From positions 17,484,001 through 17,548,000 of the forward strand of contig OX597831.1 of NCBI GenBank assembly GCA_951406725.2: a stretch of 64,000 bases of DNA, written 5' to 3'. Below, in pieces: positions 41,705-41,804 of this stretch. This DNA is from Octopus vulgaris (lineage: Eukaryota). The notes beneath the pieces were generated by a model. It was not told the DNA's origin and made no database searches. It saw only the letters and a list, made by a program, of their open reading frames with translations. The translations under genes and the position numbers were made by a program. The first letter of the stretch is position 1. The number at the start of each line of letters is the position of its first letter.

Positions 41705-41804
41705 GTGTATCAAGTATATGCACGCTGGACTTGTGTAAAAATGCCGCCGGCTATTATTGGTGCAACACTTATAACGACAATGCAGCCGTGCGCCCTGTCC
41801 ACGG
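41705..41804 (+). CDS. Exon 2 of the small Cys-peptide gene, copy B: VSSICTLDLCKNAAGYYWCNTYNDNAAVRPVH(G)
   Basis: A 100-bp exon, ccaag|...|gtaggt, with an open frame; paralog of 11,435-11,534. Confidence 0.72.

Follow-up and report, generated by a model that had tools for sequence, protein, structure and literature searches.

Why does one short coding exon differ so strongly between two copies in the same stretch of octopus DNA? The stretch analyzed here, called the window, covers 64 kb (C18:17.484-17.548 Mb) of the 2.8-Gb Octopus vulgaris genome. In the original prediction, a mature-peptide exon at 41705..41804 was called hypervariable relative to copy A1, next to a conserved tail and a conserved adjacent intron, and the pattern was likened to diversifying selection on toxins, immune peptides or recognition molecules. 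The copy called "B" there is the mini copy B3, and the "relic" is a transposon relic in intron 2. The flagged signal is real but partly misread, and it leads to a larger gene family than was first seen. The explanation towards which we lean takes it as the middle exon of a mini gene that belongs to a large tandem family of predicted GPI-anchored, Cys-rich surface proteins in octopus; it would change fast because the short peptide is displayed on a cell surface as a recognition or defence tag. As a first guess, such tags would work where an epithelium or haemocytes meet microbes or other cells.

The mini genes in the window are laid out as follows.

41705..41804 (+): B3 exon 2; end of the signal region, predicted mature peptide of about 21 residues with 3 Cys, predicted omega site (N-A-A), spacer
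44052..44121 (+): B3 tail exon; hydrophobic C-terminus and stop, with AATAAA at 44148
41860..42923 (no strand): transposon relic in B3 intron 2, likely converted; Tc1 is the original prediction's label only
38338..41704 (+): remnant of B3 intron 1
9070..9109 (+): A1 exon 1, signal peptide
11435..11534 (+): A1 exon 2
13194..13263 (+): A1 tail exon; AATAAA at 13290
58558..58597 (+): exon 1 of A2, a recent duplicate of A1
60898..60997 (+): A2 exon 2, identical to A1; splice acceptor non-canonical, likely a pseudogene
62378..62437 (+): A2 tail exon; stop at the same place as in copies D, E and F

The earlier stop of A2 was considered as damage, and this was rejected, as D, E and F share it. A1 and A2 are carried by a recent segmental duplication (window 1-12733 vs. 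47559-62227, 96-99% identity). Elsewhere in the window, 15480-19161 and 20977-21666 hold long open frames that resemble remnants of a LINE-type retroelement and a mariner-type transposase (labels assigned by eye).

Exon 2 and its neighbors in copies A1 and B3

A recount of exon 2 agrees to the base with the earlier figure: A1 and B3 differ at 32 of 100 nt. Of these differences, 26 lie inside the 21 predicted mature codons (26/63 nt, 41%), where 4 of 21 residues are kept and no indel or stop occurs. The earlier counts for the neighbors also hold. The tail exon, exon 3, differs at exactly 11 of 70 nt (15.7%), and the intron relic is far more similar than the exons, at only 80 differences in 1063 (7.5%). 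Ordinary non-coding flanks of the two copies differ at 258 of 1448 positions pooled (17.8%; five blocks, the 3′ flank included, each 16-22%).

Against these flanks the mature stretch is in excess (Fisher p = 2e-5; p = 8e-5 to 2e-3 after correction for the best 63-nt window), as it is against the adjacent upstream intron (23/118, p = 0.003). The mature codons also exceed the other codons of the same exon, both between A1 and B (p = 0.014) and between F and B (p = 0.0007). The excess sits mainly on the B branch. F and B differ at 34/63 positions of the mature stretch vs. 20/96 of the adjacent intron (p = 3e-5), and A1 vs. F shows no excess (18/63 vs. 23/95, p = 0.58). CpG mutability was considered as the cause and rejected; CpG transitions explain just 4 of the 26 differences. 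The core of the original claim, a focal amino-acid change in the predicted mature part of a real coding exon of a multigene family, is supported.

The contrast drawn around that core fares differently. The tail was said to be conserved, but it diverges as much as the flanks do (p = 0.75), and non-synonymous changes make up 10 of the 11 (dN 0.24, dS 0.06). The intron was used as a conserved baseline, but the relic is itself the outlier, being abnormally similar (p = 2e-14) next to other non-coding blocks at the ordinary rate. What stands is the mature excess; what falls is the conservation of its surroundings. A converted intron and a neutral-rate tail can inflate apparent hypervariability, and similar comparisons call for caution.

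The similarity of the relic is likely the work of gene conversion, the simplest account. The exon-2 region, the relic and the tail region each give a different tree. In AU tests the relic is incompatible with the exon-2 tree (p = 0.001) and with the tail tree (p = 0.002), and the tail region likewise rejects both of the others (p = 0.012 and 0.004); the exon-2 region, which is short, rejects neither. Six-Cys genes share parts of the relic, at ~67-72%, so the relic is old. Slow mutation of the relic was rejected, given 30/780 differences there between B1 and B3 vs. 3/300 in the UTR. Its low divergence together with its discordant tree thus points to gene conversion.

Mini copies and the six-Cys family

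A full-size gene of the family, gene C, lies in the window on the opposite strand to the minis:

31352..31388 (-): gene C exon 1, signal peptide
28437..28536 (-): gene C exon 2, Cys 1-3; 100-nt length, phases and flanks the same as in mini exon 2
24883..24967 (-): gene C exon 3, Cys 4-6; absent from the minis
24549..24575 (-): gene C exon 4, 27 nt, with a predicted omega site
22256..22315 (-): gene C exon 5, hydrophobic tail
35705..35902 (-): orphan degenerate copy of a Cys 4-6 exon

Gene C is also duplicated 44 kb to the right. A model in which class C ends just after exon 2 was rejected: in one copy that segment lies inverted, and exons 3-5 proper were identified.

The cluster extends well beyond the window. 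Iterated profiles across 1.24 Mb, in which neither cluster end was reached, found no fewer than 44 related exon-2 units, spread across more than 1 Mb of the chromosome: 34 of the six-Cys type (two with an in-frame stop), 8 minis, and 2 strong units further left. About five further weak exon-2 candidates lie to the right and are not in the 44. Full-size genes have a signal exon, a Cys 1-3 exon, a Cys 4-6 exon and a hydrophobic last exon, preceded in several groups by a 24-30-nt exon with an omega-like site. In 15 of 17 spliced domains there are six Cys, spaced 7, 13-18, 8, 7-8 and 9-12. The left-hand exon 2/exon 3 pairs at C18:17.17-17.25 Mb have phase-1 ends, and no exon 1 was found between them; they probably represent tandem domains of a single gene that is alternatively spliced. 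The six isoforms of O. bimaculoides LOC128249887 provide a parallel. Multi-domain models exist in both species: one O. vulgaris prediction has four domains, and one O. bimaculoides RefSeq gene has three.

Two O. vulgaris gene models made independently, CAI9735840.1 and CAI9735841.1, reproduce the spliced domain and tail. They are the only O. vulgaris predictions from the cluster returned by protein searches; both are fused, and neither is a mini. The O. bimaculoides RefSeq models LOC128249851, -852, -853, -887 and -895 have the signal, the six-Cys domain and, in most, a GPI-like tail, and therefore lend independent support to the exon predictions. Five of the 17 domains have a clear best partner in O. 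bimaculoides, at 57-77% identity. Together with LOC128248155, these proteins of the two species comprise single- and multi-domain forms; they differ from the genes of interest here in being all full-size, with no mini among them, and none has a functional name. When 1.84 billion representatives were searched by profile, 11 hits came back, nine of them octopus family members and two unrelated. As family members, P0008 and P0011 were rejected (no hit for P0008; at most 3.4 bits per stretch for P0011). A second O. vulgaris locus, at C6:103.9-104.7 Mb (103.90-104.74), holds multi-domain relatives; a nine-domain O. bimaculoides protein, itself lacking a hydrophobic tail, gives 41 matches there at exon level.

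The eight minis are A1, A2, B1, B2, B3, D, E and F. They form one clade (UFBoot 100) nested within six-Cys class C (99). In phases and flanks mini exon 2 agrees with six-Cys exon 2, and six copies also share its length of 100 nt. The minis keep ancestral Cys 1-2 (the second shifted by one in some copies), have lost the third, and have gained others in some copies. Exon 2 of the eight copies thus has 2, 2, 3, 3, 3, 3, 3 and 4 Cys, at a spacing of 7 or 8, which does not fit the fixed Cys scaffold originally proposed. The odd Cys number had been ascribed to a missing upstream Cys or to dimerization. A missing upstream Cys is not supported; the odd count goes back to the likely loss of the Cys 4-6 exon, which lay downstream and held the other three Cys of the ancestral domain. 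A dimer of three-Cys copies is possible. On the minis' strand, a class-C exon-3 profile has no match downstream of any mini exon 2, and the 1.66-kb intron of A1 is mostly relic.

By rule of thumb, each of the eight minis carries a candidate omega site of small residues, 23-32 residues before its end, together with a spacer and a hydrophobic tail, whose best 11-residue hydropathy is 1.75-2.42. In seven of them a hydrophobic exon 1 of 12-14 codons reads by inspection as a signal peptide; B3 has none. The minis are therefore predicted to encode GPI-anchored peptides of ~20 residues. With such a tail they look like surface peptides and not like the secreted toxins of the original prediction. Their reading frames are kept beyond neutral expectation: there are no stop codons in seven copies (simulated P = 0.002 under neutrality) and no frameshifts (P = 0.005-0.04). 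Deletions of 18 nt in two copies leave the frame intact. The mini tail exon goes unrecognized by a profile built from the last exons of six-Cys genes. An alternative model, exon 2 ending in a stop with the donor 4 nt beyond, was rejected, as three copies lack that stop.

Splicing of the minis is predicted only, because no transcript or protein record backs them. No mini candidate turned up among protein records in word-based searches that took the B exon or the mini tails as query; a match needed three 5-residue words in common, and the residues covered were 24-77 and 9-91. Contigs of four of 24 runs (guessed to be RNA) covered repeats only and neither B exon, a result with no bearing on expression.

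The flagged copy is itself incomplete. There is no exon 1 upstream of B3 on its strand, an absence that the original prediction missed. Its likeness to sibling B1 stops at window position 38338, ~2.3 kb short of the position of B1's exon 1. Since the likeness ends short of exon 1 and no exon 1 was found upstream, B3 is probably a 5′-truncated recent duplicate, unless the assembly is wrong there. Upstream of the break, 33457-34249 and 34528-35320 form an essentially identical 793-bp inverted duplication, which suggests a very recent rearrangement or an assembly effect. Within intron 1 of B3, a 134-bp tandem repeat is present in two copies (41142-41416).

The siblings of B3 fare better, B1 having an intact exon 1 and B2 a frameshifted one with an intact one further upstream. 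The B-type exon 1 does not join the exon-1 clade of A, C, D, E and F (support 99); over 469 bp it is 91% like the exon 1 region of a distant six-Cys gene. Because exon 1 groups with that gene and outside the clade, the B genes are likely chimeric, and promoter capture is likely. B-type exon 1 and promoter have a near-match in a distant six-Cys gene on the opposite strand (L014:546-670, L015:4398-4522, L033:6817-6941).

The proposed history is as follows. An ancestral gene with signal, Cys 1-3, Cys 4-6, omega and tail exons would have shed exons three and four. The role of omega site would have passed to the end of exon 2, leaving a peptide of ~20 residues, probably with one disulfide loop and an optional extra Cys. 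The B lineage would then have gained exon 1 and a promoter from another branch of the family, and its peptide would have changed in a burst, probably under episodic positive selection, with conversion homogenizing the intron relic. B3, probably silent, would have inherited its divergence from A1 from intact B genes.

Tests of selection on the mature peptide

The original prediction took the pattern to resemble diversifying selection, for which a dN/dS of 1 or less and a divergence no greater than that of non-converted flanks would be the contrary finding. Neither was found. For the mature part of A1-B, NG86 gives dN 0.72 vs. dS 0.31, and divergence lies above the flanks. This dN/dS above 1 is suggestive only; a comparison of N with S there yields p = 0.24. 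The site models, run with author-written GY94 code on tiny alignments, are non-significant. M2a vs. M1a is so in all five alignments (three of minis, p = 0.96, 0.37 and 0.27; class C, 0.19; ten left-hand members, 1.0), and M8 vs. M8a gives p = 0.38 and 0.08. M0 omega is 1.1-1.4, and omega = 1 fits 82% of sites in a set of ten six-Cys members. A fixed-partition test, the only one to reject omega = 1, gives omega 2.4-2.65 (p = 0.005-0.014; p = 0.005 for 2.65) with a synonymous rate borrowed from the tail, which has its own, possibly younger, genealogy, and with a partition chosen after the differences had been seen; from exon 2 alone it gives omega 1.47 (p = 0.32). The likeness to diversifying selection is therefore weakly supported.

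Counts from close copies bear on the same point. The three B copies show 5 differences in total, all residue-changing, which is not significant alone. In 11 independent paralogue pairs pooled, pN is 0.100 and pS 0.091. Synonymous sites of recent pairs are also at ~2x the divergence of the flanks, which are biased low by local alignment; such an excess is as expected if conversion spares exons. A burst on the B branch over a near-neutral background is probable. Adaptive change in the mini peptide is likely but unproven.

Candidate roles and relatives of the family

How the mature codons came to stand out can also be told without selection. In the strongest rival to a displayed tag, itself somewhat unlikely, the mature peptide is a tolerant spacer evolving at an omega near 1 under relaxed constraint, and patchy gene conversion has homogenized its neighbors more recently. 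The M0 and M2a results, the near-equal pN and pS, both above the flanks, the three discordant trees and the near-neutral fit of the six-Cys members all agree with this, as does copy D, whose upstream intron is as diverged as its exon 2. It accounts less well for an excess that is seen within a single exon and against the intron beside it, in A1-B and F-B alike, and for the B copies, all of whose few differences change residues.

A neural role raises the question of relatives. If the family were a neuritin- or RGM-like surface code labeling neurons or sensory cells, the minis would be a shortened ligand variant; we consider this quite improbable. Pfam RGM_N does match the four-domain member (E = 2e-9, 37.9 bits over four stretches, cut-off 24.2). 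The two-domain member stays below the cut-off at 22.0 bits, there is no RGM_N or NRN1 match in nine further database hits, single-domain members among them, and RGM_N does not match the mini exon. Among 12 proteins, neither Pfam NRN1 nor the RGM C-terminal domain finds a match; 26 single exons give nothing in Pfam under E 0.02, and PDB sequence searches give nothing under E 1. By language-model features the nearest named cluster is neuritin, at 0.79-0.83, where scores below 0.9 are leads only. Two structure models used to compare the family with the neuritin fold are all-helical and of low confidence (mean pLDDT 46.6 and 47.6). The genome has its own RGM N-terminal domain, over the Pfam cut-off and away from the cluster (C2:46.68 Mb). 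The family resembles it in a single Cys spacing only: of 1000 shuffles that kept the Cys in place, 59 reached the same score or more, and the hhalign probability is 0.1%. UniRef tags one O. bimaculoides member as "GDNF/GAS1 domain-containing", which Pfam did not reproduce. The RGM and neuritin matches are leads, and the family is not filed under either.

The architectures differ as well. Neuritin (CPG15; NRN1, PF15056) is likewise small, with a signal peptide, six Cys and a GPI anchor. It is a low-copy, conserved vertebrate gene, whereas the octopus cluster shows fast turnover and the minis retain just two ancestral Cys. Near-neutral turnover of this kind is unusual for wiring molecules. RGM-N (PF06535) has a C-x8-C-x7-C core in common with the family; the spacings otherwise differ (7, 13-18, 8, 6-8, 9-12 in the family vs. 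4, 22, 8, 7, 21 in RGM), and the minis do not have the matching core. RGMs are described as GPI-anchored, with an auto-cleaved C-terminal domain (PMC10084454). The octopus family is without that domain.

The role first suggested, a secreted toxin or antimicrobial peptide family under conotoxin-like selection, we think very improbable. It draws on a mature region that is short and rich in Cys, on tandem copies and on the concentration of amino-acid change in one place, and GPI proteins can be shed. Conotoxin-type genes have a conserved signal exon and a variable mature exon, and the raised synonymous sites are a further likeness. The hydrophobic tail with an omega-like site, present in all the minis and in the full-size members examined, speaks for an anchor; Cys number and spacing vary where a fixed framework would be expected, and the models contain no propeptide. 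In layout alone, with no homology claimed, the minis are nearer to the CD52/CD24 type, in which a precursor of ~60-70 residues is mostly signal and GPI signal around a very short surface peptide. They differ in carrying Cys, in having no N-x-S/T sequon in the mature part, and in being a multigene set derived from a folded domain.

Literature searches brought up no paper on the family, and the six LOC ids of the O. bimaculoides relatives are absent from the papers searched; supplementary tables of octopus atlases may list these genes. The octopus cluster of small cysteine-rich, predicted surface-tethered genes is thus apparently undescribed. Within it lies an unannotated branch of miniaturized, probably GPI-anchored peptides. 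A bolder reading, unlikely as it stands, would be a combinatorial code for cell identity or immune recognition, comparable to the octopus protocadherin expansion. In such a code, a megabase-scale repertoire of dozens of GPI-anchored neuritin/RGM-N-like surface proteins would have arisen by domain multiplication, promoter capture and conversion, and one branch would have been rebuilt, by loss of half its fold, into disulfide-loop tags of ~20 residues under positive selection.

If expressed, the cluster would be a large cephalopod gene expansion mostly missed by annotation, and its members would be candidate surface-recognition molecules in immunity, in gamete interaction or in the neural identity of the octopus. 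The minis may also offer a traceable case in which a folded six-Cys domain became a tiny anchored peptide through exon loss, Cys rewiring and promoter capture.
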